The position numbers were made by a program, and so were the translations under genes. A model generated the notes under the pieces. That model was not told the DNA's origin. It was given only the letters and a program-made list of their open reading frames with translations, and ran no database searches. Shown here in pieces: positions 1 through 31,777 of a DNA stretch of 64,000 nucleotides (position 1 is the first letter of the stretch; the number at the start of each line of letters is the position of its first letter). The DNA lies in the IMG/VR virus record IMGVR_UViG_3300020446_001812, positions 42,432-106,431 of that record, one strand, 5' to 3'. This DNA comes from a virus.

Positions 1-2
1 TT

Positions 3-632
3 AACACAAATGCATGTCCTCCGGATATTCTATGGAATATTTTTGTAGATAAAATTGTTGAATTAGAGAATAATAAATCTGTTAAAAATTTTACTTTATA
101 TACAAGTGCTGAAAGTTACGGCAGTCAAGCAGAATATGTTAGAGATGGAATGGATTTTGATTTGTTTGAAAAAAATTTAACACATTTTATACAAAAAACA
201 AAAAGGTCGAGAGTAACAATAATGAGTGCATTTAATATATTAAGTTTGCCTACATTGAAACCTTTTATAAGATGGTCAAATAAATTAAAAAGACTTTCGA
301 GAGGCAGAGTGTTTTTAGATTTTGCATATGTAAGGCATCCAGAATTCTTAGATGTTAAAATTGCAGATAAAGATTTAATAGATCAGTATATTAAACCTGC
401 TGTAGATTATATGATTGAAAAGGATGTATATACGGATTATGAAATATTTAAACTAGAAAGAATATATAAAGATTGTATTTCTAAATTAGAAAAAGAGTTT
501 GATTTCAAATTAGAAAAATATCAATTTTACCAATTTGTAAATGAATACGACAAGAGACGTAATAAAAGTTTTTTGTTAACATTTCCAGAACTAAAAAACT
601 TTTATAAAAAATGCGAGGCCTATTATGTATGA
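3..632 (+). CDS. Radical SAM protein, C-terminal part (5' end outside window)
   Basis: The frame is open from the window start (NTNACPP...LYTSAESYGSQAEYVRDGMDF). The NTN, 'S.E..G..AEY.R.G' and C-terminal 'YDKRRNKSF..TFPEL' segments match the C-terminal halves of the other rSAM paralogs here. Confidence 0.7.
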   Translation, partial: NTNACPPDILWNIFVDKIVELENNKSVKNFTLYTSAESYGSQAEYVRDGMDFDLFEKNLTHFIQKTKRSRVTIMSAFNILSLPTLKPFIRWSNKLKRLSRGRVFLDFAYVRHPEFLDVKIADKDLIDQYIKPAVDYMIEKDVYTDYEIFKLERIYKDCISKLEKEFDFKLEKYQFYQFVNEYDKRRNKSFLLTFPELKNFYKKCEAYYV

Positions 633-1308
633 TATAGCATTTATAAGTTATAATGAAAAGCAAGCTGATAAAAATTGGGAAATATTATCTAGTAAATTCA
701 AATATGCCAAAAGAACGCACGGAGTAAAAGGTATACATCAAGCACATATAGAAGCGGCTAAAAAAGCATTTACTCCAATGGTTTGGTTTGTAGATGCAGA
801 TGCTGAAATAAAAGAAGATTTTGATTTCAGCTATATTCCGCCAAGAAAAGATAGAGATGCTGTGCATGTATGGAGAAGTCAAAATCCTATAAATGATTTA
901 GAATATGGATACGGAGGCGTAAAACTTTTTCCAAGAATAGCTACTATAAATGTAGACGTTAATAAACCAGACATGACAACAAGTATTAGTAAAAAGTTTA
1001 TACCTATGCATACTATAAGTAATACAACGATGTTTAATGTAGATGAATTTAGTACATGGAGAAGTGCATTTCGAGAATGTGCAAAATTAGCAAGTAAAAC
1101 AATTGATAGACAAAACGAGGAGGAAACAAATGCAAGACTTAAAACTTGGACAACCGTGGGACACACTAGAAAGTTTGGTGAATATGCGATTCGAGGTGCT
1201 TACGATGGTATGGAGTTTGGCCTTTCTAGGGGGGCTGATCTTCGGTTAATAAACAATTACGAATGGTTAAAGGAGCAGTTTGATGCAAACACAAGAATTA
1301 TTAGATAA
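625..1308 (+). CDS. Putative GT-A-like glycosyltransferase domain protein
   Basis: MYDIAFISYNE start, 'WFVDADA' DxD motif and 'GYGGVKLFP'; resembles a common phage GT-like family. Confidence 0.55.
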   Translation: MYDIAFISYNEKQADKNWEILSSKFKYAKRTHGVKGIHQAHIEAAKKAFTPMVWFVDADAEIKEDFDFSYIPPRKDRDAVHVWRSQNPINDLEYGYGGVKLFPRIATINVDVNKPDMTTSISKKFIPMHTISNTTMFNVDEFSTWRSAFRECAKLASKTIDRQNEEETNARLKTWTTVGHTRKFGEYAIRGAYDGMEFGLSRGADLRLINNYEWLKEQFDANTRIIR

Positions 1309-2239
1309 ATTTGAAATACTTTATCCAAATGTTGCTGATTTGCGTAGGGCTTACACTGATAAAGATTTAAGTAGTATTTTTAGATTACTAGATGCAAACG
1401 ATGATTTACGCAAAGCAGTAATGGAAGAAAACTTACATAGTATATTTAGAATCATAAAAAATTATGATGTAGAAGAATTACGAAAAGCAGTCACAGAAAA
1501 AAATTTACACAGTATTTTCAGACTTGTAGATGACGAAGATTTACGTAAGTTTTTACTAGAGGATAATATATACAAATTATGGCCTTTACTACGTAGATTT
1601 ACAAATACACAATTTGTAGATGCATTTAAAAGTTTTTTTATTAATAATATTGAAATTGACAATGATTGTTTTAGCAGAGGACAATTATTAAGTAAACAAT
1701 GGTTAATTAAGGAATTGTTAAAAATTAATAAAAATTTAGGAACAGTGTATCTTTGTGCAGGATGGTATGCTACACTTGCAACAATGTTATTTGAAAGTAA
1801 TATAAAGTTAGATAAAATTAGATCTTTTGATATAGATGAAACTTGTGTGCCTATAGCAAAAATATTTAACAAGCCTTGGTTAAAAGAAAACTGGAAATTC
1901 CAAGCATCAACTATAGATATAAATGATATAGATTATAGAGAACACACGTATCAAGTAACAAGAGCAGATGGTACTTCCTGCTCTGTTACTGATCAATGCG
2001 ATACTGTTATAAACACAAGTTGTGAACATATTGGAAATTTTTCTAAATGGTATAACAATATTCCTGCAAATACAATACTTGTGCTTCAAAGCAATAATTT
2101 TAATGAAGTGGAGGAACATACAAATTGTGTCAATAATATAGAAGAATTTGACAACATGACACCTATGCAAGAAACTTACTATAAAGGTGCACTTGAACTA
2201 GACAAATATACGAGGTACATGAAAATTGGATATAAATAA
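1283..2239 (+). CDS. Class I SAM-dependent methyltransferase-like protein with N-terminal tandem repeats
   Basis: 'VYLCAGWYATL', 'RSFDID' and 'VINTSCEH' motifs; AAGGAG SD upstream; about three copies of 'SIFRL..D..DLRKAV.E.NLH'. Confidence 0.65.
   Translation: MQTQELLDKFEILYPNVADLRRAYTDKDLSSIFRLLDANDDLRKAVMEENLHSIFRIIKNYDVEELRKAVTEKNLHSIFRLVDDEDLRKFLLEDNIYKLWPLLRRFTNTQFVDAFKSFFINNIEIDNDCFSRGQLLSKQWLIKELLKINKNLGTVYLCAGWYATLATMLFESNIKLDKIRSFDIDETCVPIAKIFNKPWLKENWKFQASTIDINDIDYREHTYQVTRADGTSCSVTDQCDTVINTSCEHIGNFSKWYNNIPANTILVLQSNNFNEVEEHTNCVNNIEEFDNMTPMQETYYKGALELDKYTRYMKIGYK
1360..1575 (+). repeat. In-frame degenerate tandem repeat (about 3 x 21-24 codons)
   Basis: agtatttttaga...ttacgcaaagcagta / agtatatttaga...ttacgaaaagcagtc / agtattttcaga...ttacgtaag. 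Confidence 0.8.
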
Positions 2240-2462
2240 TTTTAGTCTAAGAAAATTGCAGACAGAAAGTTCCCGTGCTTTAAGTGCTATGCAAGCTACT
2301 AATAATAATATTCATCAATTCAATAAACAAGCTCATCATAATAGCCAAAATTGGTACAAAGCAGTAATTGAATGGTATATAAAAGAATATGGCGACATAC
2401 CAAGTAAAGTAGGTCCGGGTAAAGATGTAAAATTAGTCTTAGGAGAAAACGTTGATACATGA
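2226..2462 (+). CDS. Small hypothetical protein (78 aa)
   Basis: ORF overlaps both neighbours in operon fashion and contains the AGGAG SD for the next gene. Confidence 0.6.
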   Translation: MDINNFSLRKLQTESSRALSAMQATNNNIHQFNKQAHHNSQNWYKAVIEWYIKEYGDIPSKVGPGKDVKLVLGENVDT

Positions 2463-3399
2463 TATAAATTTACTAATTCAAGAAAAAACCAATATTATAG
2501 AATCTTGTGTCAAATATCAAAAGAGGAAATATCCTAATAGAACAAGAGATTATGACAAGTGTAGAAGAGATTTAAATTACATACTAGATGCAATGCTTTT
2601 TGATGTAGAGAATAACACAACACACAATACAATTTATATAGGAAACAAGTTTTGGATTAGAAACGAACGGCAGATATCAGTATACCAGGTAGAACTGGAC
2701 GTTTACAATAAAATGTTTTCAATTATAGAAAATAATGAAAATTTTTCTGATGAAACAGTAAAACGTATGAAAGATTTGACAGCAATACTTTCAAATATAA
2801 TTAAACAAGGACCTATGGAAGAACCAAATAGTTGGCATCATAGTGCATCGTTAAGGCTTAACACATATAATTGGCAACTTAAAGTTCCTAAGGTCGAAGA
2901 AATTAATGGCATTTTAGATGACCTTCATAACTATTCACCTAGTAAACAAAAAATGGTAAGATACCATATAGATGTATACAGGAATGATAATGATGAAAAT
3001 AAGAAAAAAATTTATCGAGCTCATGCCGCGACTACAGAAAAAAAAGCTAGACACAATCCGCAAGTATTAGCTCCTTGGTTGTTGTTTTTTCGACCAAGAG
3101 ATGAAGCAACTTTAAAGGACGATTTTAGACTTGCAGATTTTTATATGGATTTAGGTATAGCCACTAGTAATATTATTTACAGTGCCGCAAGTAGAGGGTT
3201 GGATACAGGAATATCTAAATGTATAAATTATGATGATTTGATTAAAGAGGTAATTGGATATGTTCCAGAATTAGTCATTGGTATTGGATATAGAAACAAT
3301 GATAGACGATATATGTGTTTACATTATAATAAAATAATTGAGATCCCAGATTATGATGTTCCTAAACCAGAAATGGATGAATATATAACATATGTATAA
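2452..3399 (+). CDS. Nitroreductase-family protein with N-terminal phycobiliprotein-like helical module
   Basis: C-terminal nitroreductase pattern 'SPSKQ..YHIDV', 'NPQVLAPWLL', 'DLGIATSNIIYSAASRGLDTG', 'IGIGY'; N-terminal 'YDKCRRDLNYILDA'. Confidence 0.65.
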   Translation: MIHDINLLIQEKTNIIESCVKYQKRKYPNRTRDYDKCRRDLNYILDAMLFDVENNTTHNTIYIGNKFWIRNERQISVYQVELDVYNKMFSIIENNENFSDETVKRMKDLTAILSNIIKQGPMEEPNSWHHSASLRLNTYNWQLKVPKVEEINGILDDLHNYSPSKQKMVRYHIDVYRNDNDENKKKIYRAHAATTEKKARHNPQVLAPWLLFFRPRDEATLKDDFRLADFYMDLGIATSNIIYSAASRGLDTGISKCINYDDLIKEVIGYVPELVIGIGYRNNDRRYMCLHYNKIIEIPDYDVPKPEMDEYITYV

Positions 3400-4459
3400 T
3401 TACGAAGATATTAAAACAATTCATCTAGAGGTTACACAAAATTGCCAAGCCGCATGTCCTATGTGTGATAGAAATATGAATGGTAAAGGAATAAATCCTC
3501 ATATTAATCTTGATGAGCTTTCTTATCAAGATTGTACAAATATATTTCCTGCATCTTTCATCAAACAATTACATACTATGTACATGTGTGGCAATTTAGG
3601 TGATCCTATTGTTGCTAGAGACACATTAGAAATATTTGAATATTTCCGTTGGGCTAATCCTAACATGTGGTTAAGTATGAATACAAATGGCGGAGCAAAA
3701 AATGAAATCTGGTGGCGTAAACTTGCAAAAGTTTTTAACAATAAAGGTGCAGTAATCTTTAGTGTAGACGGATTAGAAGATACTAATCACATATATAGAC
3801 AAAATGTAGTTTGGAAAAATGTAGAACGTAATATGCGGGCATTCATCGATGCAGGTGGCAGAGCAAGATGGGATTTTTTAATTTTTGAACATAACCAACA
3901 TCAAGTAGAAGAAGCAGAAGCTCTTGCAAATGAGTGGGGTTGTGAAAAATTTATGAAAAAGAAAACTGGTAGGTTCATAACACAAGATTCAAAAAAGAAA
4001 GAGTCACACCAAGCAGTAAGTAAAAAAGGAAAAACAACTAAAGAACTTAAAAAGCCTGATAGCAAATATCAAAATAAAGCATTAAAACAGCAAGATGCTG
4101 TAATTCAAAAATATAATACAATGGATACCTATTATGATAATGCCTTTATTGATTGTAAAGTAAAAAAAGATAATAGTATTTTTATTACAGCAGAAGGTTT
4201 AGCACTACCTTGTTGCTGGACAGCAGGACGAATGTACAAATGGTGGCATAAAGATCCTAAAGTAGAACAAATATGGGACTTTATACCAGATAAATCTGCT
4301 TTAGATGCACGTAAAGGTTTAGACAAAGTTTTTGATACGGGCATATTTACAAATATACAGAATAGTTGGTCCAAACCAAGTTGCAAAGAAGGAAAATTAA
4401 AAGTGTGTGCAATGAAGTGTGGCACTGAATTTGATCCGTTTGGAGAGCAATTTAAATGA
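3392..4459 (+). CDS. Radical SAM protein with C-terminal Twitch/SPASM-like domain
   Basis: CQAACPMC, 'GNLGDP', 'NTNG', 'SVDG'; C-terminal 'DCKV..SIFITAEGLALPCCW...CAMKC'. Confidence 0.9.
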   Translation: MYNYEDIKTIHLEVTQNCQAACPMCDRNMNGKGINPHINLDELSYQDCTNIFPASFIKQLHTMYMCGNLGDPIVARDTLEIFEYFRWANPNMWLSMNTNGGAKNEIWWRKLAKVFNNKGAVIFSVDGLEDTNHIYRQNVVWKNVERNMRAFIDAGGRARWDFLIFEHNQHQVEEAEALANEWGCEKFMKKKTGRFITQDSKKKESHQAVSKKGKTTKELKKPDSKYQNKALKQQDAVIQKYNTMDTYYDNAFIDCKVKKDNSIFITAEGLALPCCWTAGRMYKWWHKDPKVEQIWDFIPDKSALDARKGLDKVFDTGIFTNIQNSWSKPSCKEGKLKVCAMKCGTEFDPFGEQFK

Positions 4460-4959
4460 TATTTAATTTCGCTACAATTGATGCTAATTTTGATGTGATA
4501 AAACAGAGTAGTCAATGGTATAACCTTGTCAATGAATTTAAAAAAGCAAAAAAGATTGGCTATATAGGACATGGCGGTAATCTTGCAATCGCTGATCATG
4601 CATCAATAGACGCCGCAAGATTGACTGATAAACAAACCTTTAGTTTAGGTTCAGCAATATGGTGTACATCTTTAATTAATGATCATAAAGAAAAATGGAT
4701 TAGCAAATGGATAGGCATGACAGACGCAGATTTAGTTATACTTTTCACTGCAAGTGCGACAGATAAAGCATTTGACATAGCTGTAAACCACTGCATTCAA
4801 AAAAACATAAACTATTGTGTGATATCTGGAGTAGACAAATATCCAAAACAAATACATCTAAATTTACTAACCTATCATGAATATGAAGTAGCGGCGTTAG
4901 CGTTATCATACGAACTTTTAAATGCAGGAGGTTACCATTGTCCGGAAATAAAACAGTAG
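4456..4959 (+). CDS. SIS-domain sugar-phosphate isomerase (GmhA-like)
   Basis: 'IGHGGNLAIADHASID' resembles GmhA 'GNGGSAADAQH'; 'TSLIND', 'LFTAS', 'YHEYE'. Confidence 0.65.
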   Translation: MIFNFATIDANFDVIKQSSQWYNLVNEFKKAKKIGYIGHGGNLAIADHASIDAARLTDKQTFSLGSAIWCTSLINDHKEKWISKWIGMTDADLVILFTASATDKAFDIAVNHCIQKNINYCVISGVDKYPKQIHLNLLTYHEYEVAALALSYELLNAGGYHCPEIKQ

Positions 4960-5660
4960 CATTACAGACTGCAAGAGCAGGATCAAAAAGTATTCCAAAA
5001 AAGAATTTATTAGAAGTAGACATGCATCCATTGTTTGCCCATTCTATAATGGCAGCTACAGATTGTGATTTAATAGACAGTGTTTGGTGTAGTACTGATG
5101 ACGATACTATAAAAAGTTTAAGCACCTTTTATGAATTCAATATCATAGATAGACCTTTGGAGTTATCTGGTGATGATGACAGTCATCTAGACGTTATTAG
5201 ACACGGCGTTACACATATAGAAGATAACATAGGCACTTGCGATATAGTAGTTTTACTTTTAGGTAATGTTGTTGGAATTGATAGTAAAAGTTTGACTGAA
5301 GCAATCAAAATGCTAGATGGATTCGATAGCGTTGTTAGTGTAAGTAAATTTAACATGTTTAATCCGTTTAGGGCGATGCAAATAAAAAACGGAGAACTTA
5401 ACACATTTATTTCACAAGATCAAATACAAAGTTCTAAGCAGGCAAATGATAAAAATAGTGCTGGTGATATTTACTATTGTAACGGAAATTTTTGGATTAT
5501 GAAACGTGATATAATATTTAAAGATGACAATAAACTTCCATTTCAATGGTTAGGTAACAAGATTCGTCCTTATGTACAAGATACATTTTTAGAGTTAGAT
5601 GCACCTTGGCAAAAGGATTATGTAATACAAAGCATTAGAAATGACAAAGGTTTGAAATGA
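4938..5660 (+). CDS. neuA: Acylneuraminate/nonulosonate cytidylyltransferase (CMP-NeuAc synthetase family)
   Basis: 'TARAGSKSIPKKN', 'STDD', 'RPLELSGD', 'YYCNGNFW', 'ELD'. Confidence 0.85.
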   Translation: MSGNKTVALQTARAGSKSIPKKNLLEVDMHPLFAHSIMAATDCDLIDSVWCSTDDDTIKSLSTFYEFNIIDRPLELSGDDDSHLDVIRHGVTHIEDNIGTCDIVVLLLGNVVGIDSKSLTEAIKMLDGFDSVVSVSKFNMFNPFRAMQIKNGELNTFISQDQIQSSKQANDKNSAGDIYYCNGNFWIMKRDIIFKDDNKLPFQWLGNKIRPYVQDTFLELDAPWQKDYVIQSIRNDKGLK

Positions 5661-6577
5661 ATTTTTGGGAACAAACAAAAAATATAAGGCCAGAAGAGTT
5701 TACAGATAGTAAATTATATGGTAGACGTTTTTGGAAAAACTTTCTAAAGACGCATGATTACTTTTTTGTAGAATTTCCGTTATCTATGAAAAATTATTTT
5801 TTACCTATGGGGTATTTTTTGTATACATCAAAATCAAAGAAAGATTATTTAAAATTTGTATATAAAAAGAAGACGTATGAAGAATACGTAAATTCTTGTA
5901 AATTAATACATGATACATTATGTAATTTTAATTATGAGATATTTAAAATACGCAAAGACGATCTATTTCGTGTAAAGGAATTCCCTCAATTTTGTATATT
6001 AATTAGAGAACTATACCAAAACGGATCTTACAATTATCCTTGCTGGAGATTATCAGACGGACTTGTATGTTCGCATCCTGGCCAACATTTAAATTTTTGT
6101 AAAATATTTTTAGGTATGCCTGTTAAAGGCTGGATATCTTTTCCTAAACAACGCACACAACAAAGTTTGCAATATTTACATGGCATGAACATAATTAAAA
6201 AGATTAATAATAATGATGATATAATAGATATACTAGGAACAAATATTATTTCAGCTTGTATACAAAAATATGATGATCAACAAGTTCCAAGCCTTTATCC
6301 TAGTATACCAAGACCAATTTGGTCTGATTATGACGGAAACGGAAACACAGCTTGGCCTTGGAACGATGTATGGAATTTCAACGAACACCTGCGTAAATCT
6401 AGTTTTTTAAAAATTATAGATAAGATAATACAAAATCCAGACAGTGTTAATAAATTTGTTGAGGTTAAAGTAGATTTTCCTAGCAATGAAATTTTAATTA
6501 ATAACTTTTTTGCTTTTTTGCTTACTGAACAACAAGAAGATAATAAATTTAAATTGAAAGTTGCCAGACGTACTTAA
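5657..6577 (+). CDS. Hypothetical protein
   Basis: 306-aa ORF with ATGA overlap to the upstream gene; no motif recognised. Confidence 0.65.
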   Translation: MNFWEQTKNIRPEEFTDSKLYGRRFWKNFLKTHDYFFVEFPLSMKNYFLPMGYFLYTSKSKKDYLKFVYKKKTYEEYVNSCKLIHDTLCNFNYEIFKIRKDDLFRVKEFPQFCILIRELYQNGSYNYPCWRLSDGLVCSHPGQHLNFCKIFLGMPVKGWISFPKQRTQQSLQYLHGMNIIKKINNNDDIIDILGTNIISACIQKYDDQQVPSLYPSIPRPIWSDYDGNGNTAWPWNDVWNFNEHLRKSSFLKIIDKIIQNPDSVNKFVEVKVDFPSNEILINNFFAFLLTEQQEDNKFKLKVARRT

Positions 6578-6609
6578 CATTGGCTTTTTTGCTGATAAGT
6601 ATGTATATA

Positions 6610-8022
6610 ATGAAAAAAGAATTACCATCAAAAACCTTTTGTTTACTTCCTTGGGTGCATCTTAGCACAAGACCAGATGGAAGTATGCGTGTATGTTGTA
6701 CAGCAAATGCAAGTTCTGTAGGGCCGACTAATGACAAAGAACATGGTGGTCAAGTTGGTATTTTAAAGACAGAAGACGGAAAGCCTAATAATCTCAATGT
6801 TAGCGATTTTGAAACTGCCTGGAACAGTACCTACATGAAAAACGTAAGAATGCAAATGCTTAACGGTGAACAACCTCCTAGTTGTATAAAATGTTACAAG
6901 GAAGAGGCTGCAGGTCATAATTCGAAACGTATGTGGGAAACTGAATACTGGAGACAAAGAGTTGATCTTGACCAAATAATTGCAAACACAGCAGAAGATG
7001 GCAGTGTGCCTCCTAATCTTGCATACATTGATTTAAGATTCGGTACTAAATGTCAACTAGCGTGTGTAATGTGTTCGCCGCATGATAGTTCAGGTTGGAT
7101 AAAAGATTGGAAAGCTGTATTTCCTGCTGTAGAAAATGCAAGTTTAAAAGAAACTATGCAGTGGAAAGACAAAGGTAGTTACAATGGAAGCAGTTACAAT
7201 TGGCACAAACAAAATCCTACATTTTGGAAACAGTTTTATGAACAAATGCCAAGTATGCAACAAATTTATTTTGCAGGTGGTGAAAGTTTAATAATTGAAG
7301 AACATTATGAAATATTAGAACATGCTATCAAAATGGGTTATGCAAAAGATCTTGAACTTAGATATAACAGTAATGGAGTAGAATGGCGTGATGATCTATT
7401 TGATCTGTGGAAGCAATTCAAACTAGTACGTTTCCATTATTCTATTGATAGTATAGAAAAAATGAATGATTATATAAGATATCCAAGTGATTGGACTAGA
7501 CAAAGTCAAGTCTTTCATATACTAGATAATTATACATCTAATAATGTAGAAGTAACTGTGGCTTGTGCTGTACAAGCATTAAACATTTATTACATACCTG
7601 ATTTAATAAAATGGAAATTAAATCAAGGTTTTAAAAAAATTAACATGTGGCCGTTTGGGGCAGGAGGCGTAAATTATCACTTTGTGTATCATCCGCCGCA
7701 TTTAAATGTAAAGGTTTTACCTAAATGGTTTAAAGAAGAATGTCGTAAAAAGTATGAAGAATTTTATCCTTGGTGGGAGGCTAATTGGGAAAAAGGAGTA
7801 CCTAGTTGGCACAAAGGAAAAGTTGATTATAATAAATGGCGGAGTGCTAGTTATGGTATAAGTAGGCTGGAAGGTATGTTAAAATTTATGGAAAGCGAAG
7901 ATTGGAGCATACGTTTGCCTGAAATGAAAGAGTTTTTAGATTTGTGTGACAAACAAAGGGGCGTCACATTTTCTGAAACTTTTCCAGAAATGAAGGATAT
8001 ATTTAATGTTTGCAAAAATTAA
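6610..8022 (+). CDS. Radical SAM protein with N-terminal Twitch-like domain
   Basis: 'FCLLPWVH..DGSMRVCC...CIKC' followed by CQLACVMC, 'FAGGES', 'NSNG', 'SIDS', 'YIRYP'. Confidence 0.9.
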   Translation: MKKELPSKTFCLLPWVHLSTRPDGSMRVCCTANASSVGPTNDKEHGGQVGILKTEDGKPNNLNVSDFETAWNSTYMKNVRMQMLNGEQPPSCIKCYKEEAAGHNSKRMWETEYWRQRVDLDQIIANTAEDGSVPPNLAYIDLRFGTKCQLACVMCSPHDSSGWIKDWKAVFPAVENASLKETMQWKDKGSYNGSSYNWHKQNPTFWKQFYEQMPSMQQIYFAGGESLIIEEHYEILEHAIKMGYAKDLELRYNSNGVEWRDDLFDLWKQFKLVRFHYSIDSIEKMNDYIRYPSDWTRQSQVFHILDNYTSNNVEVTVACAVQALNIYYIPDLIKWKLNQGFKKINMWPFGAGGVNYHFVYHPPHLNVKVLPKWFKEECRKKYEEFYPWWEANWEKGVPSWHKGKVDYNKWRSASYGISRLEGMLKFMESEDWSIRLPEMKEFLDLCDKQRGVTFSETFPEMKDIFNVCKN

Positions 8023-23263: not shown

Positions 23264-23714
23264 TATATTAATATACGTTTTTATATTTTTTGCATGGACA
23301 TTTATATTATATTGGATGCACAGAATTTGTCATTATGTGCCATACCTGAAGCAAATACATTGGCATCATCATAAATTTGTTACAGGACAACAACCAACAT
23401 GGATGTGGCAAAATCTTTTTCTTTATAGTGATGATTGGATGAGTACATTAGATATTGTTGTTACAGAAATAATTCCTACACTTATATTTTGTTATTTTAC
23501 AGGTCATTGGTGGGTAGCTGTTTGGTATTACGTCTGGACAGCATTTATTCAAGAATGGTTTGAACACAATCCTAATTTTAACCTATGGCCGTTTAGTGCA
23601 GGAAAATATCATTTGAATCATCACAAATATTGGCGATATAATTTTTCTTTATTTTTTCCTATTTGGGATATAGTATTCGGCACTCATAAACCAATTACCA
23701 CAAACAATAGTTAG
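23256..23714 (+). CDS. Sterol desaturase/fatty acid hydroxylase family membrane protein
   Basis: 'YWMHRICH', 'HWHHH', 'HLNHH', 'NFSLFFPIWDIVFGT'. Confidence 0.85.
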   Translation: MVDILIYVFIFFAWTFILYWMHRICHYVPYLKQIHWHHHKFVTGQQPTWMWQNLFLYSDDWMSTLDIVVTEIIPTLIFCYFTGHWWVAVWYYVWTAFIQEWFEHNPNFNLWPFSAGKYHLNHHKYWRYNFSLFFPIWDIVFGTHKPITTNNS

Positions 23715-23726
23715 ATATATATTATT

Positions 23727-24665: not shown

Positions 24666-25536
24666 TTTTTGTGCCATTTACTAAATGATCTAATAAATCT
24701 TTTATCTCTATAAACATATGATTTTCTCTATAATTGTGTATCATTCCATTTACAATAAAATCTATTTTTTCACAGCCTTGATATTTTGGAAAGTATAAAA
24801 GATCATTGCTCCAGTTTTTTCCATAAAAAGTAGGTTTAATAAACAAGTCCCAATAGTTTATTATACTAATGGGTTCTTCACCTTCATAAGATAAACCTGG
24901 AATATTGTAGTAATTCCATGCATTGCACACAGAGGTCAGTGTACCCTCCATTAGCACACTTGCAAGTAAATGCTCGTCTTTTTCAAAGCCCACCACTGTA
25001 TGACGCTTATTTCGCTGTTTATAGGCCCTTAATCGTGCATATTCTACACTGTTAGCTGACTCTAATATGTAGTGTTTTCCATTATGCACATATGGATCTG
25101 GCCCGTTAAATCCTTCTATCCATGTAAGTTTATCAGATATTTTTTCTAAAAATATGCTATGTAAAATTTGGTTAGGTGGAATTTTATGTTCTTGCGATTG
25201 GGCTAGTATAGTATCTTTTTCTTTGTAAGGATCTATTTCAACTATTGTTACATCTATATTCCATTTAGATATACATTGTTGTACATTTTCATATTCGTTA
25301 TCATTATATCCCTTCATACGCATAAAAGCACAAGGAATATTGACACCAACGTCTTTGAAAGCTAGGTATGTTGCTTGACTGTCAGTGCCACCGCTAAAGC
25401 TAAGAATACAATCATTGTAGGTCTGTAAAATAGAATTAGCCCGCTCAGCAAATTCAACTCTAGGAGAACCAACTGGGCGGGCTAACGGGGTTACATCAAT
25501 ATAAAAATTATTTTTATCGTCGAACCCATATGACAT
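24631..25536 (-). CDS. Stand-alone PP-loop ATP pyrophosphatase
   Basis: 'LSFSGGTDSQ'; C-terminal 'PKYQGCEK'; 35-bp convergent overlap with the previous gene. Confidence 0.7.
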   Translation of the reverse strand: MSYGFDDKNNFYIDVTPLARPVGSPRVEFAERANSILQTYNDCILSFSGGTDSQATYLAFKDVGVNIPCAFMRMKGYNDNEYENVQQCISKWNIDVTIVEIDPYKEKDTILAQSQEHKIPPNQILHSIFLEKISDKLTWIEGFNGPDPYVHNGKHYILESANSVEYARLRAYKQRNKRHTVVGFEKDEHLLASVLMEGTLTSVCNAWNYYNIPGLSYEGEEPISIINYWDLFIKPTFYGKNWSNDLLYFPKYQGCEKIDFIVNGMIHNYRENHMFIEIKDLLDHLVNGTKTKRYIQRNPNL

Positions 25537-26049
25537 TTAGGCAGTAGTAGATTTTGGTTTTCTACCAGCCTTCTTAGGTGCTTTATCCTTTAGGCTTGGG
25601 TCAACAACTTGTGCAATTATTTTTGCCCATGGTACAACGTTCCATGTACGTTCATGTGCATAGTATAAGAACATGTTTATTGCTGTTGCTAGACCTGCAA
25701 AAATTGTTGCGTTACCCCAACTACCTGTAACAAGGAATGGGATAATAAAATTGTTTGATGTAATAACAATTCTCCAGGTAATCATCTTAGCGGCAGATCT
25801 ACCTTCTTGATCATCAAATGCTCTTGCAGGATTTTCTTTCCTCCATATTTGGAAATAATTCCAGGCTCTTTCGTGTAACCAATACAATGTACTGTTTATT
25901 AGTGTCGCCCAGCCTGCAATTTTTAAGCCCACTAAAAGACTTCCCGTAGCAAGAAAGCCATTCACTATGTGAGATATAGTAAGCAACACTCTCCAGGAAA
26001 CCATTTTAGCAATAGTTCTAGGGTGTCTTTCATTAAACTTAGTAAACAT
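25537..26049 (-). CDS. Membrane protein with two tandem DUF2061-like domains
   Basis: Two copies of 'R...K...WR...TGS...HER.WN'; AAGGAG SD. Confidence 0.75.
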   Translation of the reverse strand: MFTKFNERHPRTIAKMVSWRVLLTISHIVNGFLATGSLLVGLKIAGWATLINSTLYWLHERAWNYFQIWRKENPARAFDDQEGRSAAKMITWRIVITSNNFIIPFLVTGSWGNATIFAGLATAINMFLYYAHERTWNVVPWAKIIAQVVDPSLKDKAPKKAGRKPKSTTA

Positions 26050-26071
26050 TTTTTCTCCTTTATTTATTAAG

Positions 26072-26086
26072 TGCGTATATAACTAT
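26072..26086. repeat. Left copy of 15-bp perfect inverted repeat (TGCGTATATAACTAT)
   Basis: Exact reverse complement of 27290-27304. Confidence 0.9.
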
Positions 26087-27291
26087 TTATTCCATTTTAG
26101 ACTAGCTGGATTTATTTTTGGTACAATTGGACCTATTTTATAATTGACAGAATACACTTGTAAACCGTCTGCAAAGCCATGTTCTGTGTTAACAAACCTA
26201 CTTGCGTTTGTCTTTACATAATTAATACCTTCTTGCCAAATAGTATGGTGTTTTGTACCTTTATGGCCTTCAATATACCAATGATCAAATTCACTGTACC
26301 AATCTAGCGTTGCTTTATCAGCTTGATACCATGAATTATTCCAAGAACTATACAGTAATGGCCTAAGCTCTCGTTCATGCATAGTTCTAAATAGATCAGC
26401 TGTCATATTTTTTCCATACCAAAAAGGCTGTTTTTCTGGTGTCAATTCTAACCAGTGTTTTATTGTGTATGCTTGTTTGCATAATATATCTACACTTTCA
26501 GGCGCCCAATAAAAATACTCTACTGTGCTGTTATCATAATCTCGTATATGGTTTTCTATAGTTATGATATTAGTCGATCTATCATTAAATCTAAGATAAA
26601 AATCTCCGTTTGAGTGTATGAAAGTCCTAGGTTTTTCAATACCAAGTATCAATCCTATTTTTTTACTTTTGTCAAATTGTTTTCTAACATCATTAAAATG
26701 TATGTAATTAAACCTTGTAACATTTAATGGATTTAGTCCTTCACGCTTATCCATTATCCAACTAGCATCGCCTTTGGAAAGCCAAGAATCAAATAAGTAA
26801 TCAGACATATCTAATATTGTAATTTTTGTTTTCGGAGACAGTTTCTGTATTTCTTTTAGTCTTGGTATAGTTTGTAAATAATGCTCGGCCGCCGCATTTT
26901 TAGGATCTTTATTATTAGGGTCTATATCAGTGTAAGATAAATTTGCTTTTTCCATTGTGTTTACAATAATTTCATCTATGATCAATCCTTGCCTAATAAA
27001 ACTATTTGCTATATTTTGACTGTCACTACCTCCACTATAACTTAGTATTAAATAATCATAAGTGTCTCTTAATTGTTGAGCACGGACATCATATAATTTA
27101 TCTAATGTTTGAGTAGGCTCAATATGCCAATTGTAGTTTTTAAAAGTATCAGTATTAAAATGCCATTGTACATCTTGATTTGTAGATTGAGCAAAAAAAC
27201 AAGCCTGAATTTTGCTATCAAATTCTATATTGCCAACGGTGTAGTATCCTAATTTTTTGTTAATTTCATGCATCTCATGAGTACTTATCAT
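26083..27291 (-). CDS. Stand-alone PP-loop ATP pyrophosphatase (paralog of 30581-31777)
   Basis: 'LGYY', 'LSYSGGSDS', 'GIEKPR', 'EYFYW'. Confidence 0.75.
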   Translation of the reverse strand: MISTHEMHEINKKLGYYTVGNIEFDSKIQACFFAQSTNQDVQWHFNTDTFKNYNWHIEPTQTLDKLYDVRAQQLRDTYDYLILSYSGGSDSQNIANSFIRQGLIIDEIIVNTMEKANLSYTDIDPNNKDPKNAAAEHYLQTIPRLKEIQKLSPKTKITILDMSDYLFDSWLSKGDASWIMDKREGLNPLNVTRFNYIHFNDVRKQFDKSKKIGLILGIEKPRTFIHSNGDFYLRFNDRSTNIITIENHIRDYDNSTVEYFYWAPESVDILCKQAYTIKHWLELTPEKQPFWYGKNMTADLFRTMHERELRPLLYSSWNNSWYQADKATLDWYSEFDHWYIEGHKGTKHHTIWQEGINYVKTNASRFVNTEHGFADGLQVYSVNYKIGPIVPKINPASLKWNK

Positions 27292-27304
27292 AGTTATATA
27301 CGCA
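27290..27304. repeat. Right copy of 15-bp perfect inverted repeat (ATAGTTATATACGCA)
   Basis: Exact reverse complement of 26072-26086; followed by ATAAATA at 27306-27312. Confidence 0.9.
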
Positions 27305-27318
27305 GATAAATATTACTG

Positions 27319-28248
27319 ATGGAATCCAAAATCCCTATAATTGCAGCACCTATGAATCAAGTTTCCGATGCAAATTTAGCTATTGCCTGCCACCGAGCAG
27401 GTATAATGCCTAGTATAAGTTTTCTTAACTTTGTAGACAAAGATACCCATACATGTGATTTTGAATCTTTTTTACGAGATGTTGAATACTTTACATCTTC
27501 AACTAATACAAACAAACTTATTATAAGTGTCAGTAGTAAAACCTTACTTAGAAAAGGAATACAAGATCAAGTTGTCAAATATTTTAACAAAATAAAATTT
27601 TCTCATTTAGAAATAATATTAACAGAAAGATTAGAATTTACAAATAAAAAATTAACACAAAACGATAAAGATCTTTTTGATAGTATAGAAGAAGCATTAA
27701 AAAGTTTACCTAAAGTAAAAATTATGTATAAAGCACTTGATGTATATAGTATTATACAAATTGCAAAATATACTGAATTTATAGATTGTTATGTACTTAA
27801 ATCTAACAAAGGAGCAGGAACAATATCAAATTATACAAGCAATATATATGAAAGTATAAATTTGTTTAAAACAGAATGTCCTGGAAAAGAAATAATTGCA
27901 AGTGGCGGAATATCTACTGCTAAGGAAATAAAAAAATGTATCAAAGCTGGAGCAAAAGCAGTAGCAATAGGTACTTTGTTTGCTTTTGCAAAAGAAAGTA
28001 AAATTTCTAATGAATCAAAAAAAGTTATGATACAAAAAAATAAAAATGATTTAGACATAATTTCTGGTTATCAGAATGGAGTTGTCTTTAATAAATTAGA
28101 GAAAGATGATAGTAACAACACATTTAGTCTTATAGAAGGCATTAAATCCCCTCACAAGGGTCATTTATTTGCTGGGCATGGATTAAATAATATAACAAAT
28201 ATTTTGTCAGTGCAAGAGATAGTGGATAAATTATGGCCGAAAAAATGA
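27319..28248 (+). CDS. Nitronate monooxygenase/FabK-like FMN TIM-barrel oxidoreductase
   Basis: 'IIAAPMNQVS', 'IIASGGI', 'GAKAVAIGTLF..ES', 'FAGHG'. Confidence 0.75.
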   Translation: MESKIPIIAAPMNQVSDANLAIACHRAGIMPSISFLNFVDKDTHTCDFESFLRDVEYFTSSTNTNKLIISVSSKTLLRKGIQDQVVKYFNKIKFSHLEIILTERLEFTNKKLTQNDKDLFDSIEEALKSLPKVKIMYKALDVYSIIQIAKYTEFIDCYVLKSNKGAGTISNYTSNIYESINLFKTECPGKEIIASGGISTAKEIKKCIKAGAKAVAIGTLFAFAKESKISNESKKVMIQKNKNDLDIISGYQNGVVFNKLEKDDSNNTFSLIEGIKSPHKGHLFAGHGLNNITNILSVQEIVDKLWPKK

Positions 28249-29630
28249 AATTTAGCTTAGACAGTTTTTGTCCTGAAGCATGGAATCAAATAGAAATAGA
28301 TGCACAAGGTGATTATAAAATTTGCTGTTTAGCAAATTATGATAATGATTTCGGTATGGCTCTTGATAAAGACGGTAATGTAATGAATGTTAAAACACAC
28401 ACTATACAAGAAGCAATGAATAGTGAAACACATAAACAACATAGAAAAGAAATGAGCCAAAACATAAAGCCAAAAAGATGTAGGAACTGTTGGGATAGTG
28501 AAGAAAGCACAAGAAATCAAGAAGGTTTTGGTTATAAAGATAAATTTAAAAAATATGGCATAAGCAAAAGACAGCGTGTAATAAGAAATACGAGTAATGT
28601 AATTCCTGAGTATACCAAATGGAACGAGGCACATCTAGTTACAAGCGAAGATGGAACCTTGGATGTTGAAAATGTAAAACATGTAAATTTAGATTTGAGA
28701 TTTGGAAACTTATGTAATCAAAAATGTATTATGTGTAGTCCGCAACATAGTAATCAATGGTACGATGATTGGGTAGCAATAGGATACGGAGCTCCACAAT
28801 ATAATAGAAAAAAAGGAAGATATAAAAAAGGTAAAGCGAAAGAGTTCGAGTTTTTCTATGATGAACATAATAGAGTCAAAATGGCTGGAATGGAACCTTG
28901 GTGGGAAAGTGAACAATGGTGGACTATGTTTGAGAAACAAGCAATGGACTTAAGGTACATATATTTTACAGGAGGCGAACCATTAATTGTTCCACAAATG
29001 CAACAATGTTTAGATAGGTTAATAAACAAAGGGTATAGTAAGGACATTCAGCTAAGGTATGATACAAATTTATCTGTAATAAACCAAAAGGTTATTGACA
29101 AATGGAAAAATTTTAAAGATGTTTTTTTATGTATCAGCGTTGATGATACCGATGAAAGATATAACACAATAAGATATCCAGGAAATTTTGAAAGGTTAGA
29201 ACAAAATATTATTAAATTAAAAGAAAACGGTATAGATATACATTACATAAGCACCTGTGTTGGCATTGCAAGTCCTTACAGTGTCCAACGTATATATGAG
29301 TTTGGAAAAAAATATAACATAGATACAAATTTTAGATTTTTAGAAGGTCCTAATTGGCTTGATATTAGAAACTATCCTGCAGATGCTAAAAAAGAAATAA
29401 TTGAAAATTTACGCGATTATTCTACAGATAAAAAATATACTAGATGGGCAAACGCCGAAATAAAATTATTAGAAAAATATATGGATCATAGTGAAGAAAA
29501 ACATCTTAAAGAATTTATTAGAGTCATGGATGTTCTTGACAAACAAAGATCGACAGACTGGAGGAAAGCGATGCCAGATGTAGTAGATCTTTACAAAACA
29601 TATTGCCCCGACATATATAAGGAAAAATAA
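28233..29630 (+). CDS. Radical SAM protein with N-terminal Twitch-like domain
   Basis: 'FCPEAW..GDYKICC...CRNC', CNQKCIMC, 'FTGGEP', 'DTN', 'IRYP'. Confidence 0.9.
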   Translation: MAEKMKFSLDSFCPEAWNQIEIDAQGDYKICCLANYDNDFGMALDKDGNVMNVKTHTIQEAMNSETHKQHRKEMSQNIKPKRCRNCWDSEESTRNQEGFGYKDKFKKYGISKRQRVIRNTSNVIPEYTKWNEAHLVTSEDGTLDVENVKHVNLDLRFGNLCNQKCIMCSPQHSNQWYDDWVAIGYGAPQYNRKKGRYKKGKAKEFEFFYDEHNRVKMAGMEPWWESEQWWTMFEKQAMDLRYIYFTGGEPLIVPQMQQCLDRLINKGYSKDIQLRYDTNLSVINQKVIDKWKNFKDVFLCISVDDTDERYNTIRYPGNFERLEQNIIKLKENGIDIHYISTCVGIASPYSVQRIYEFGKKYNIDTNFRFLEGPNWLDIRNYPADAKKEIIENLRDYSTDKKYTRWANAEIKLLEKYMDHSEEKHLKEFIRVMDVLDKQRSTDWRKAMPDVVDLYKTYCPDIYKEK

Positions 29631-30233
29631 ATGCATTATTATAGAATAGGAAAACTTAAAAAAGAAATTGTGCAAGAAATGCTTGCCGCAGTGTTAGAAA
29701 AAAGTGAACCAAGTAAAGGTTATCATTGGATTGAATTTGATGATAATTTAAATTCAATGTGGAATAATATTTGGGAGAACAAAAATTTAAAAGTTAGACG
29801 CTGGGATAATAAATGGATACAAAAAGCATTTTACAGTCCTGTCGGTAAAGGTTGGAAAATACATAAAGATGGAATAGATTGTAAAGTTGCATTGAACATT
29901 GCATTACAATCAAACGAATCTGATTGGGTGCGGTGGTATGACGAAGAATTAATAAATGATCTAGCAGATATAAATGTTACAGACGGTGACAAGGGAAAAG
30001 GACATAGTAGAAATATACCTATTAATGAGTACGAAGATATTTCTTTTATAGATGAATTAAAAGTTGAACAAGGGGAAGTATATCTTGTTAATACAGATGT
30101 ATTTCATAGTTTCTATTGTGGAGGTCCTAAAGATAGAGTAATTGTGCAAACTAAATTTCAGAATAATCCAAACTGGAATACTGTATTAGAAAATGTAAAG
30201 AAAAGTAATTTTACTCTTCAAGCCCGTGATTAA
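29631..30233 (+). CDS. Putative 2OG-Fe(II)/cupin oxygenase
   Basis: 'IHKDG', 'ALNI', 'VNTDVFHS', 'DRVI'. Confidence 0.55.
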   Translation: MHYYRIGKLKKEIVQEMLAAVLEKSEPSKGYHWIEFDDNLNSMWNNIWENKNLKVRRWDNKWIQKAFYSPVGKGWKIHKDGIDCKVALNIALQSNESDWVRWYDEELINDLADINVTDGDKGKGHSRNIPINEYEDISFIDELKVEQGEVYLVNTDVFHSFYCGGPKDRVIVQTKFQNNPNWNTVLENVKKSNFTLQARD

Positions 30234-30519
30234 GACAAACAATTTCCCATGCTTCATTCCATTCTTTTTCAGCTGTCAAATTGTTTTGCCATTGATCTTT
30301 AGCCATTTCTTCTTCTAAATCTAATCCTTTATCATCTGCCCATGTAGATTTTATTTTCATCACTAATTGAGAAGAATCTGTGTATTCCATTACTCTCCAA
30401 GAAAGGCATTTTCCAGTATCTAGATATTCTGATTTAATCCATGCTTTGAATTCATCAGATGGTGTATACCATTCGGCGTCAGTATGGGGTCTCATAAAAG
30501 TTTTGCTGTAAATTGCCAT
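30211..30519 (-). CDS. Hypothetical acidic, Trp-rich protein (102 aa)
   Basis: AGGAG SD and ATAAATA box upstream. Confidence 0.7.
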   Translation of the reverse strand: MAIYSKTFMRPHTDAEWYTPSDEFKAWIKSEYLDTGKCLSWRVMEYTDSSQLVMKIKSTWADDKGLDLEEEMAKDQWQNNLTAEKEWNEAWEIVCLNHGLEE

Positions 30520-30536
30520 AATCTATCTCCTACTAT

Positions 30537-30552
30537 TATTTATCACTAAATA
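30537..30552. promoter_or_regulatory. Back-to-back late-type TAAATA boxes (divergent)
   Basis: ATAAATA on - strand (30537-30543) and CTAAATA on + strand (30546-30552) between divergent genes. Confidence 0.5.
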
Positions 30553-30580
30553 TCATGTAATAGATATAAAGAGGTTACCG

Positions 30581-31777
30581 ATGAAAGTCCCCCATAAAGA
30601 ATTAGGTTACTATATATGTGATAACAAAGTATTTACATCTAAAATACATGCTTGTATATATGCAACTCAGCATAAAAAACAAATAGAATGGGTTTTTAAC
30701 AATGATGTTTTTGATAATTTCCCATGGCAAATAGAACCTCAAGAATCACTAGATGAACTGTATTTCCAAAGGGCTAGGCAGATTAGAGAACAATATGATT
30801 ACATATGTTTGGCATTCAGTGGTGGTGGAGATAGTAATAATATACTTGAAGCATTTCTAAGACAAGGCATTTTTATAGATGAAGTCGTTACAAATGTAAT
30901 GGAAGACTTGAATAATTTGACAACTGTAAATCGCAATGAAATAAACAATTGGAACGAGGGTGCAGAATATAAATTACAAACAGAAGATAGACTAAAAGCA
31001 CTTAAGAATAGAAGTCCTAATACAAAAATAAGTGTAATTGATCTTAGTAAAGGACTTTTTGAATTATTTAATTCTTATGGTGATGCTGGATGGATTGAAA
31101 AAACTAGAGAGAGAATGAATCCTAGTGGTTTCATGAGGCATAATTTCCTCCATATGAAAGAAATACGTAAAAGATTTGATAAAGATAAAAAAATATGTAT
31201 GTTACTTGGAATAGAAAAACCTCGTACATATATCAAAGGAAACACTTTTAAAATGTGTTTTAGTGATAAAGCTGTTAATATTGCAACAGTAGGAGAATTT
31301 ATTCCTGAATATAATAATACTAGTATAGAATATTTTTACTGGCATCCAGAAGGCGCAAAAATAATTGCAAAGCAATGCCATGTTATTAAAAGATGGTTAG
31401 AACACAATCCTAATTATTTGCCATATTGGAAACCTAGAAGTATAGGAGACATATGGACTAATCATAGAAAGTATCATGAACGTATTTTAAGACCATTAAT
31501 TTATAATAGTACTTGGCACCAAAATTACTGGCAAGCAAACAAAAGCACAAAAGATTGGTATAGTGAGATAGATGATTGGTTTTGGACTGCTCATAAAAAC
31601 ACTAAAGAACATGCTATATGGAGGCAGGGTCTTGATTACGTAAAAGATAATGCAAAAGACTGGATGATGCCTGGCGATGTAGAAGGTTTAAAGGGTTTCT
31701 TGCATGCATACGAAATTGGCGAAATGAATCCTATAAAATTAGAATTACCTACAAATAATGTTGTTTTAGCTGATTAG
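30581..31777 (+). CDS. Stand-alone PP-loop ATP pyrophosphatase
   Basis: 'LAFSGGGDS', 'GIEKPR', 'EYFYW'; colinear similarity with 26083-27291. Confidence 0.75.
   Translation: MKVPHKELGYYICDNKVFTSKIHACIYATQHKKQIEWVFNNDVFDNFPWQIEPQESLDELYFQRARQIREQYDYICLAFSGGGDSNNILEAFLRQGIFIDEVVTNVMEDLNNLTTVNRNEINNWNEGAEYKLQTEDRLKALKNRSPNTKISVIDLSKGLFELFNSYGDAGWIEKTRERMNPSGFMRHNFLHMKEIRKRFDKDKKICMLLGIEKPRTYIKGNTFKMCFSDKAVNIATVGEFIPEYNNTSIEYFYWHPEGAKIIAKQCHVIKRWLEHNPNYLPYWKPRSIGDIWTNHRKYHERILRPLIYNSTWHQNYWQANKSTKDWYSEIDDWFWTAHKNTKEHAIWRQGLDYVKDNAKDWMMPGDVEGLKGFLHAYEIGEMNPIKLELPTNNVVLAD

Follow-up and report, generated by a model that had tools for sequence, protein, structure and literature searches.

The closest published concept to the locus described here is the host recognition cluster (HRC) of pelagi- and cyanomyophages, in which fibres, glycosyltransferases, and cassettes encoding enzymes of the radical S-adenosylmethionine (SAM) type (rSAMs) are combined (Zaragoza-Solas et al. 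2020, PMC7029224). HRCs have a mean length of 34-45 kb, are non-syntenic, lie in the structural region of the genome, and under-recruit reads, which indicates hypervariability; their authors favoured a modification of the host O-chain (PMC7029224). Furthermore, the T4-like marine genome TARA_ERS488813_N000010 has 12 rSAM genes, which were mentioned with regard to the supply of Fe-S clusters (Nishimura et al. 2017, PMC5332604). Here, we describe an island of about 37.6 kb and 44 open reading frames (ORFs), 11 of which encode rSAMs, in the 106,431-bp linear IMG/VR virus record IMGVR_UViG_3300020446_001812. Most of it (36 ORFs) lies in a stretch of 64,000 nucleotides, bases 42432-106431 of the record, which is called the window in the following; genes are named by their first window position. 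We read the island as a hypervariable sugar-tailoring pathway within the tail-fibre, or host-recognition, module of a jumbo phage, a reading that in our judgement has an even chance of being right.

The island shares with the HRC that it is large and hypervariable: it is flanked by fibre paralogs and, at its opposite end, by an Mtd_N fibre, and its content varies among at least five relatives. HRCs belong to T4-like phages of about 140-250 kb and lie between VrlC and gp14, whereas the island belongs to a Rak2/Atu_ph07-like phage and extends from a fibre array to a DUF2201/MoxR block (no search was aimed at VrlC and gp14). The HRC study did not dissect the rSAM families, a conserved core, or a link to Bdellovibrionota. 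The TARA phage, which is also uncultured and marine, has a similar number of rSAM genes; it was compared by its description, which comes without an analysis of families, arrangement, or function. An earlier note on the window had stated that no phage pathway of this scale has been characterised. This holds for characterised pathways, but comparable islands have been described genomically (PMC7029224, PMC5332604). Fibre-associated islands with rSAM cassettes are already known, as is NF033640 (N_Twi_rSAM) as a catalogued family.

NF033640 is a family of single enzymes with no characterised member, and no paper on its function was found in the literature; its likeness to the island enzymes consists in the twitch-first architecture and in full-length matches. 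Virus-borne machineries for virion glycosylation, such as A64R of PBCV-1, the fibril clusters of mimivirus, and the glycosyltransferases of mycobacteriophages, comprise 2-12 genes and are not known to include rSAMs. The island resembles them in having a soluble GT-A enzyme and sugar-tailoring genes beside structural genes, and A64R is among the structural matches of gene 625; here, the machinery is predicted from genes. The pse, ptm, and maf islands for glycosylation with nonulosonic acids (NulO) in Campylobacter and Helicobacter contain many tailoring genes, vary from strain to strain, and are not known to contain rSAM arrays. A PseF-like enzyme, PP-loop proteins of the amidotransferase type (with a weak WbuX/PseA-like match), and candidate methyl- and acyltransferases are shared with them. 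In contrast, homologs of PseB, PseC, PseH, PseG, PseI, or NeuB were not detected here.

The record is about 30% complete according to CheckV, which leads to a full genome of about 350 kb. The DNA polymerase (window 52415-55102, minus strand) has its nearest relatives in jumbo phages of the Rak2/Atu_ph07/121Q type (42-49% identity), a giant ORF upstream of the window is related to virion structural proteins of such phages (Table 1), and a megablast search against cultured phages returned no relative. Thus, the source is, judged by its genes, an uncultured, AT-rich (29-38% GC), marine-type, Rak2/Atu_ph07-like jumbo phage. The island starts at record position 36620 (window position -5811, about 5.8 kb upstream of base 1), right after three tail-fibre paralogs, and ends at 31777, where it abuts the minus-strand fibre-like gene. 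One of the three paralogs has a Collar domain, another a weak match to Peptidase_G2 (chaperone-like), and the trio was found again in the related records G001-G003. From -5811 to 24665 the genes run on the plus strand, nearly all junctions overlapping, mostly by 1-65 nt; a three-gene insert on the minus strand (24631-27291) breaks this run, and the plus strand then resumes up to 31777. The earlier note had placed the island at 1-31777. The tightly packed block and its end at a tail-fibre gene were borne out, while its true start makes it longer on the left.

Comparison with related phages supports the integrity of this gene block. A scan of IMG/VR with gene 11848 yielded nine loci. Contigs of 170-347 kb also carry orthologs of 11848. 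The five IMG/VR records examined are incomplete genomes (14-44%) of similar large phages, each encoding 4-11 proteins above the NF033640 cut-off; two of them contain the polymerase, with 78% and 58% identity. The same fibre paralogs stand beside the rSAM genes in all five, and the DUF2201 gene follows on the far side in three of them (where the contig reaches). As the island has the same position between fibre array and DUF2201/MoxR genes in independent assemblies, a chimeric contig is ruled out, in keeping with the earlier view of the block as phage-encoded; its genes are also intact and not degenerate. The smallest version, at the same site in L009 and L010, is a compact one of 17 kb, and the largest reaches about 55 kb (G002); the content varies, apart from a core. 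This phage core consists of two GT-A genes, gene 1280 (w1280), a 78-aa ORF, rSAM 3392, the twitch rSAM 6580, the oxygenase 8006, the twitch rSAM 11848, and rSAM 13770. In G002 and G005, identities are 81-82% for 13770, 74-87% for 6580, and 68-72% for 11848, compared to 58-78% for the polymerase; the island core (68-87%) is as conserved as the DNA polymerase. That the core rSAMs are kept at least as faithfully as the polymerase suggests that the phage depends on this chemistry. Among cultured phages, tblastn found no homolog of 13770 and, for 6580, distant single genes only, in Ralstonia phage RsoM2USA and in Vibrio phages K566/K567. The RsoM2USA locus shares with the island only the ortholog (gp202, 35% identity) of the first twitch rSAM, and the trio formed by rSAMs 3392, 6580, and 13770 occurs in no cultured phage of the searched collection.

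All 11 rSAMs expected from the earlier note (3-632, 3392, 6580, 9536, 10710, 11848, 13770, 16037, 19199, 21186, and 28233) were confirmed: each has the CX3CX2C motif, and PF04055 scores above its cut-off in eight and near it in three. Seven are N-terminal-twitch paralogs, two bind B12, and two (3392 and 13770) are of other types. The twitch paralogs, with mutual BLASTP identities of 21-35%, carry a Cys-rich auxiliary domain (twitch/SPASM-like; Pfam SPASM at residues ~4-106) ahead of the rSAM core, and C8, C75, and C78 as well as the CX3CX2C cysteines are invariant in all seven. The curated cut-off of NF033640 is 170 bits for a full-length match. Six proteins are counted as passing it (291-419 bits, full length), with individual scores stated for five (Table 1), among them the gene that starts upstream of the window; 16037 stays just below, and 10710 was placed in the family by its Pfam architecture (SPASM, then Radical_SAM) and BLASTP paralogy, not by an NCBIfam score. 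Orthologs of 11848 in related phages are 52-72% identical. Since core orthologs share 52-87% identity between phages and the paralogs only 21-35% within the genome, the paralogs are old subfamilies and not recent duplicates.

Part of the core is shared with bacteria. A scan with an alignment of four rSAM paralogs against one genome per GTDB species, which followed a single-protein scan without matches, returned 78 loci, nearly all from assemblies of Bdellovibrionales, Bacteriovoracaceae, Halobacteriovoraceae, and Oligoflexia (contigs of up to 3 Mb, 36-58% GC). The full rSAM trio is present in 22 chromosomal loci of Bdellovibrionota, eight of which also encode GT-A and w1280. Orthologs of 3392 are 41-46% identical in 39 cellular loci. 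For 6580, identities are 57-87% in related phage-type loci and 55-62% in Bdellovibrionota; for 13770, they are 75-85% in related phages and 59-67% in Bdellovibrionota. The commonest unrelated neighbours of the bacterial cassette are GT2 transferases (14 loci), and others are a carbamoyltransferase of the NodU/CmcH type, an Asp/Asn beta-hydroxylase, an HTTM protein, and a TSP3-repeat protein. One bacterial cassette (L048) contains a desaturase-like gene (35% identical to the island desaturases), a B12-rSAM gene, and a 22631-like gene (37%), which suggests that these types belong to the same system. Another, on the Bdellovibrionales chromosome OZ220490.1 (L069, 6275-17867), has eight tandem rSAM genes, six or seven of which are of the twitch type (~445 aa). 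A maximum-likelihood tree of 13770 unites the phage sequences in a single clade (support 100/99), which groups with marine Bacteriovoracaceae/Halobacteriovoraceae (89/75) inside the diversity of Bdellovibrionota; as the tree is midpoint-rooted, the direction of transfer is not established. Two high-identity loci of the scan, in metagenome-assembled genomes (MAGs) of a Crocinitomicaceae (L013, JBDNIA010000282.1) and a Gammaproteobacteria member (L014, NZGL01000008.1), have the phage gene order and a trio with 57-83% identity and probably represent, by these features, contigs of phages that were wrongly binned into bacterial MAGs, as may also be the case for L060 from an Acidimicrobiaceae bin.

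Gene 625 encodes a GT-A fold protein, modelled from an alignment of 22 sequences. Its leading Foldseek matches are all of the GT-A/GT2 type with probability 1.0 (CgT, SunS, RmlT, WrtF, A64R, ppGalNAcT), and its DxD motif has a nearly invariant D57 and an invariant D59; the Pfam GT2 match is below the cut-off (20.7 vs 23.3 bits). The oxygenase 8006, modelled from 24 sequences, likewise has leading Foldseek matches only to Fe/2-oxoglutarate (2OG) dioxygenases, namely proline hydroxylases, GriE, EvdO2, P4H, and SnoN. For cytidylyltransferase 4938, the best NCBIfam match is PseF (TIGR03584; 87.9 bits, E 7e-25), which is far under the equivalog cut-off of 205.7 bits. A GT-A enzyme in the core of phages and bacteria, the cytidylyltransferase, and the GT2 and carbamoyltransferase neighbours in bacteria all point to a sugar as substrate, as do the sugar-acting enzymes EvdO2 and SnoN among the structural matches of 8006.

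From this, a sequence of steps can be proposed. The core enzymes (the two GT-As, w1280, rSAMs 3392, 6580, and 13770, oxygenase 8006, and twitch rSAM 11848) most likely edit a sugar by radical and oxygen-dependent chemistry. The edited sugar is probably nucleotide-activated, because this phage adds a PseF-like CMP-transferase, and the GT-A enzymes would move it to an acceptor. A variable panel, consisting of twitch paralogs, B12-rSAM methylases, oxygenases, PP-loop amidotransferase-like proteins, di-iron enzymes, and candidate acyl- and methyltransferases, would then diversify the decoration from phage to phage. As acceptor, virion fibre proteins are somewhat ahead of a host surface glycan. A direct glycosylation of virion proteins is somewhat favoured by the location in the fibre module, by the solubility of the enzymes, and by the fact that machinery for a lipid carrier is lacking. 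A crude hydropathy scan of the island proteins found clear transmembrane segments only in the three His-box enzymes and the DUF2061 protein; cytidylyltransferase 4938 has one borderline hydrophobic stretch, and the remaining proteins look soluble.

Several points weigh against a sugar-tailoring pathway. Neither a NulO synthase nor a 4,6-dehydratase or aminotransferase was detected in the island as a sugar-scaffold enzyme. The TM-scores of the GT-A matches of gene 625 are moderate (0.31-0.44). Among characterised rSAMs, the nearest HMM relatives are for the most part enzymes of peptide maturation such as SkfB, with matches to the generic rSAM core only. The SIS identity given to gene 4456 in the earlier note was not confirmed, as no match was found in Pfam, NCBIfam, or PDB, or to SIS_2 at E<=5. 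In five genomes of Bdellovibrionota, the surroundings of the cassette showed no Wzx flippase, nor could an initiating phosphoglycosyl transferase be located there; a classical O-antigen route via an Und-PP-linked intermediate is thus not indicated. Finally, tail-fibre regions are hot spots for unrelated accessory genes.

One alternative is that no single pathway exists and that a plastic region has gathered independent auxiliary genes with several unrelated host-directed functions. The content does differ strongly among related phages (17 to ~55 kb), GC is slightly below that of the flanks, separate promoters and an inverted sub-block are present in the right-hand part, and desaturases and speD-type genes are stand-alone auxiliary genes of phages. 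Such genes are also listed in the HRC study (PMC7029224). However, the packing is translationally coupled across ~30 kb, several core genes occur together both in phages and in 22 bacterial loci, and seemingly accessory types (desaturase-like, B12-rSAM, 22631-like) recur in the bacterial cassette, so that we consider such a patchwork improbable. The earlier proposal of a dedicated pathway acting on a macromolecular substrate is supported in part: the GT-As, the cytidylyltransferase, and the bacterial neighbours favour a substrate of the glycan type, and all of the ~44 genes may serve one pathway. Improbable to the same degree is a hypermodification of proteins or peptides in the manner of ribosomally synthesised and post-translationally modified peptides (RiPPs). 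By analogy with the maturation of proteusins such as polytheonamide, side chains of a ribosomal product would be the targets of the rSAM, B12-rSAM, 2OG, and PP-loop enzymes, with a virion fibre, the upstream 4960-aa structural protein, or the 78-aa protein as candidate products. Many rSAMs, two B12-rSAMs, and hydroxylases are indeed the classes of proteusin-type tailoring, and large structural proteins surround the island. In several phages, the conserved 78-aa ORF stands directly upstream of the first rSAM of the trio; the bacterial cassettes lack it. Their neighbours include the Asp/Asn beta-hydroxylase and TSP3-repeat proteins. The weaker NCBIfam matches of the twitch rSAMs are mostly to peptide maturases, and SkfB is the PDB profile match, yet this likeness is limited to the generic rSAM core. 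Pfam scans of the island revealed no PqqD/RRE, leader peptidase, or (ABC) exporter domain, and the GT-A genes and the cytidylyltransferase would have no role.

Two further explanations concern the host envelope and the phage DNA. A remodelling of lipids or glycolipids, in which acyl chains or lipid A-like molecules would be the substrates of the di-iron enzymes, the B12-rSAMs, and the FMN reductase, is very unlikely: the genes concerned are outside the conserved core, and neither an acyl carrier protein nor an acyltransferase or a lipid A enzyme was detected. It would account for the three membrane His-box enzymes together with the DUF2061 protein and for a weak FabK-like match of 27319, and the B12-rSAMs distantly match rSAMs of lipid (ladderane, hopanoid) metabolism, albeit with scores that are all far under the cut-offs. 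The least likely explanation is a hypermodification of DNA, with the PP-loop part supplying a QueC-type step for the 7-deazaguanine locus at 40-48 kb or with the island itself modifying bases. It draws on the QueE-like gene at 40432-41379, on weak QueC-like matches of 23727, and on one of 30 Atlas neighbour clusters of 26083, in which 38% of members carry QueC. Against this, the C-terminal Cys cluster of QueC is present in none of the four PP-loop proteins, whose matches cover the generic PP-loop only, the island has no DNA glycosylase, transglycosylase, or nucleotide kinase, and the bacterial cassettes are accompanied by glycosyltransferases and not by DNA enzymes.

With regard to expression, 18 of 116 start codons have a TAAATA in the 40 nt upstream of them (2.8 expected), in most cases as ATAAATA at positions -23 to -38; such counts are inflated by AT-rich intergenic DNA. 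A box of this kind precedes, among others, the first gene of the island, the Mtd_N gene, the genes for tail fibres, and the right-end sub-units. Because the first island gene has it in common with the fibre genes, island and fibre genes are probably transcribed together from ATAAATA-type boxes, which would fit a co-expression, possibly late, with structural genes. The TAAATA boxes that the earlier note had seen at several sub-units were borne out. The canonical T4 late box TATAAATA is depleted (2 vs 15.5 expected), not enriched. A perfect 15-bp inverted repeat brackets PP-loop gene 26083 (2 matches vs 0.03 expected). Its copies lie in the same orientation upstream of the starts of 25537 (minus strand) and 27319 (plus strand), each followed by ATAAATA. 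For this reason, an invertible cassette was set aside, and the repeat resembles a promoter, or another regulatory element, that was duplicated in a divergent gene pair.

The features of the island and its surroundings are compiled in Table 1.

Table 1. Predicted features of the island and adjacent regions; positions are those of the window unless marked as record positions.
Position	Strand	Feature	Evidence
record 15211-30093		Giant ORF, 4960 aa, upstream of window	26-29% identity of residues 1-2000 with structural proteins of virions from Atu_ph07, Phosso, and Pseudomonas jumbo phages
record 30738-36594		Three successive tail-fibre paralogs	Common N-terminal domain of ~180-300 aa (35-44% identity); C-termini differ
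3-632	+	N-terminal-twitch rSAM, C-terminal 209 of 444 aa; gene begins 702 nt upstream of window	NF033640 316 bits
625-1308	+	GT-A fold glycosyltransferase-like protein, core gene	AF2 pLDDT 92; paralog just upstream of window
1280-2239	+	w1280 core protein, fold unassigned	N-terminal LRKAV..NLHSIFRL repeats; conserved C-terminal domain with invariant NTSCEH motif
2226-2462	+	Conserved 78-aa protein, phage island versions only	61-78% identity in L006, L009, L011, L013, L014; no family match
2452-3399	+	Nitroreductase-family flavoenzyme	PF00881 27.6 bits (cut-off 23.5)
3392-4459	+	rSAM, trio member 1	CX3CX2C; PF04055 E 6e-6
4456-4959	+	167-aa protein, earlier proposed as SIS	GHGGN..ADH motif-level resemblance
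4938-5660	+	CMP-nonulosonate/Kdo-type cytidylyltransferase	CTP_transf_3 42.7 bits (cut-off 22.6)
5657-6577	+	306-aa protein	No match in Pfam, PHROGs, NCBIfam
6580-8022	+	N-terminal-twitch rSAM, trio member 2	NF033640 419 bits
8006-8875	+	Fe(II)/2OG oxygenase, phage core gene	AF2 pLDDT 92.5; invariant H120, D122, H264
8875-9543	+	SGNH-like candidate	Motif level: GCSWSYG near N-terminus; no family match
9536-10717, 10710-11861, 11848-13005	+	Three adjacent N-terminal-twitch rSAM paralogs	NF033640 308 bits (first) and 410 bits (third); middle SPASM + Radical_SAM
13002-13733	+	HxD...H candidate oxygenase	H159, D161, H210, H221 invariant across 23 homologs; no Pfam or PDB match
13770-14897	+	rSAM, trio member 3, most conserved island gene	PF04055 50 bits
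14833-15570	+	Fe/2OG oxygenase, paralog of 8006	hhalign 98.6%, E 5e-16; HxD and H motifs align
15573-16040	+	Small SAM-methyltransferase-like protein	VIDIGGGAG motif; Methyltransf_23 E 0.003, MetW E 5e-4, both below cut-off
16037-17059	+	Truncated N-terminal-twitch-type rSAM	NF033640 160 bits; SPASM + Radical_SAM
17005-17661	+	GNAT-like candidate	Single PHROG acetyltransferase match, E 0.0036
17670-19195	+	Two membrane di-iron His-box enzymes (FA_desaturase), 35% identical paralogs	PF00487 40 and 67 bits; three TM-like segments each
19199-20821	+	B12-binding rSAM	Radical_SAM 58 bits, weak B12-binding match; distant PhpK/ladderane-type matches
20811-21179	+	S-adenosylmethionine decarboxylase, small pyruvoyl type	PF02675 62 bits
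21186-22634	+	B12-binding rSAM, 34% paralog of 19199	B12-binding 34 bits, Radical_SAM 62 bits
22631-23263	+	HxD...H candidate oxygenase	Motif level; weak local match to 13002 at metal motif (E 0.004)
23256-23714	+	Small membrane FA_hydroxylase-family di-iron enzyme	PF04116 53.6 bits
23727-24665	+	PP-loop ATP pyrophosphatase-type protein	SGGLDS; weak QueC-like N-terminal matches
24631-25536	-	PP-loop protein	SGGTDS; weak LarE, WbuX, PAPS-reductase matches
25537-26049	-	DUF2061 membrane protein	PF09834 98 bits
26072-26086 and 27290-27304		Perfect 15-bp inverted repeat	
26083-27291	-	402-aa PP-loop protein, virus-only family	SGGSDS; 45% paralog of 30581
27319-28248	+	FMN-dependent TIM-barrel oxidoreductase (NMO/IMPDH-like)	PF03060 52.6 bits
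28233-29630	+	N-terminal-twitch rSAM paralog	NF033640 291 bits
29631-30233	+	HxD...H candidate oxygenase	Motif level
30581-31777	+	398-aa PP-loop protein, last island gene	SGGGDS; upstream TAAATA box
31774-33429	-	Tail-fibre-like protein, right boundary of island	Mtd_N 44 bits (cut-off 26); ATAAATA box at -37
34960-37509		DUF2201 metallopeptidase/VWA protein and MoxR-type AAA ATPase	Conserved right-hand boundary block in several relatives
40432-41379		QueE-like radical SAM gene, replication-side half, outside island	PHROG E 1e-52
49287-50078		Nucleotide-sugar-epimerase-like gene, replication-side half, outside island	

Most enzyme classes that the earlier note had named for the island are found in it. 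Pfam identifies the three His-box enzymes as two members of FA_desaturase and one of FA_hydroxylase, HMM matches support the S-adenosylmethionine decarboxylase, the nitroreductase, the FMN oxidoreductase, and the NeuA-type cytidylyltransferase, and the glycosyltransferase is recognised by the GT-A fold of 625. Of five proposed 2OG/cupin enzymes, 8006 and 14833 are supported by fold or hhalign. The other three (13002, 22631, and 29631) remain at the level of the HxD...H motif, with no support from Pfam, PF05118, hhalign, or PDB comparisons; the Asp_Arg_Hydrox model had no match in the genome even at E<=5. The SGNH, GNAT, and methyltransferase assignments likewise correspond to motifs or weak matches. 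Searches of PDB with single sequences returned nothing significant for 8006, 13002, 26083, 13770, and 4456, and neither did profile searches with 13002 and w1280. No scan revealed a domain of polyketide synthases (PKS), non-ribosomal peptide synthetases (NRPS), or terpene synthases, in agreement with the lack of a scaffold synthase stated before, and tRNA or Rfam families were not found in the island. Six island genes upstream of the window have no assignment from Pfam or, for the five that were also compared with it, from PHROGs.

All four expected PP-loop proteins contain an SGGxDS motif, and their HMM matches are weak and of the generic PP-loop type (QueC, LarE, WbuX, PAPS reductase). QueC was rejected as their identity, the best match being 16.7 bits against a cut-off of 22 bits; a CxxCxxC-type zinc-Cys cluster is found in none of them. 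The nearest Atlas clusters of 26083 are 99-100% viral. The w1280 family has 2071 homologs, none with a Pfam domain, and is present in 18 loci of Bdellovibrionota. The N-terminus of w1280 consists of tandem repeats of ~20 aa (DLRKAV.E.NLHSIFRL), and the homologs vary between 318 and 559 aa, apparently by repeat number. Outside the island, the QueE-like and epimerase-like genes are part of a separate locus of the 7-deazaguanine type. In the related record G005, the polymerase ortholog (G005:C1:67316-69979) has one in-frame TAG, which may reflect stop-codon recoding, an error in sequencing, or the junction of an intron or intein.

Beyond a sugar-tailoring pathway of the phage, the trio together with GT-A and w1280 could represent an unrecognised radical-chemistry glycosylation system that builds a hypermodified sugar on the tail fibres of jumbo phages and on surface adhesins of Bdellovibrio-like bacteria, two kinds of bacterial predator, which we regard as a doubtful extension. 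If it were true, the twitch arrays would provide strain-specific decorations that tune the recognition of prey or host or evade defences, and each twitch subfamily would represent a new sugar-editing reaction. No member has been characterised in NF033640, in the w1280 family with its more than 2000 homologs, or in several of the oxygenase and PP-loop families. While the island is present in no cultured phage of the searched collection, the core that is shared with predatory Bdellovibrionota offers an experimental route. If the product is a glycan of the virion or of the host surface, the island would matter for the host range of abundant ocean phages and for their superinfection exclusion, and it would add several new reactions of radical SAM enzymes with carbohydrates.

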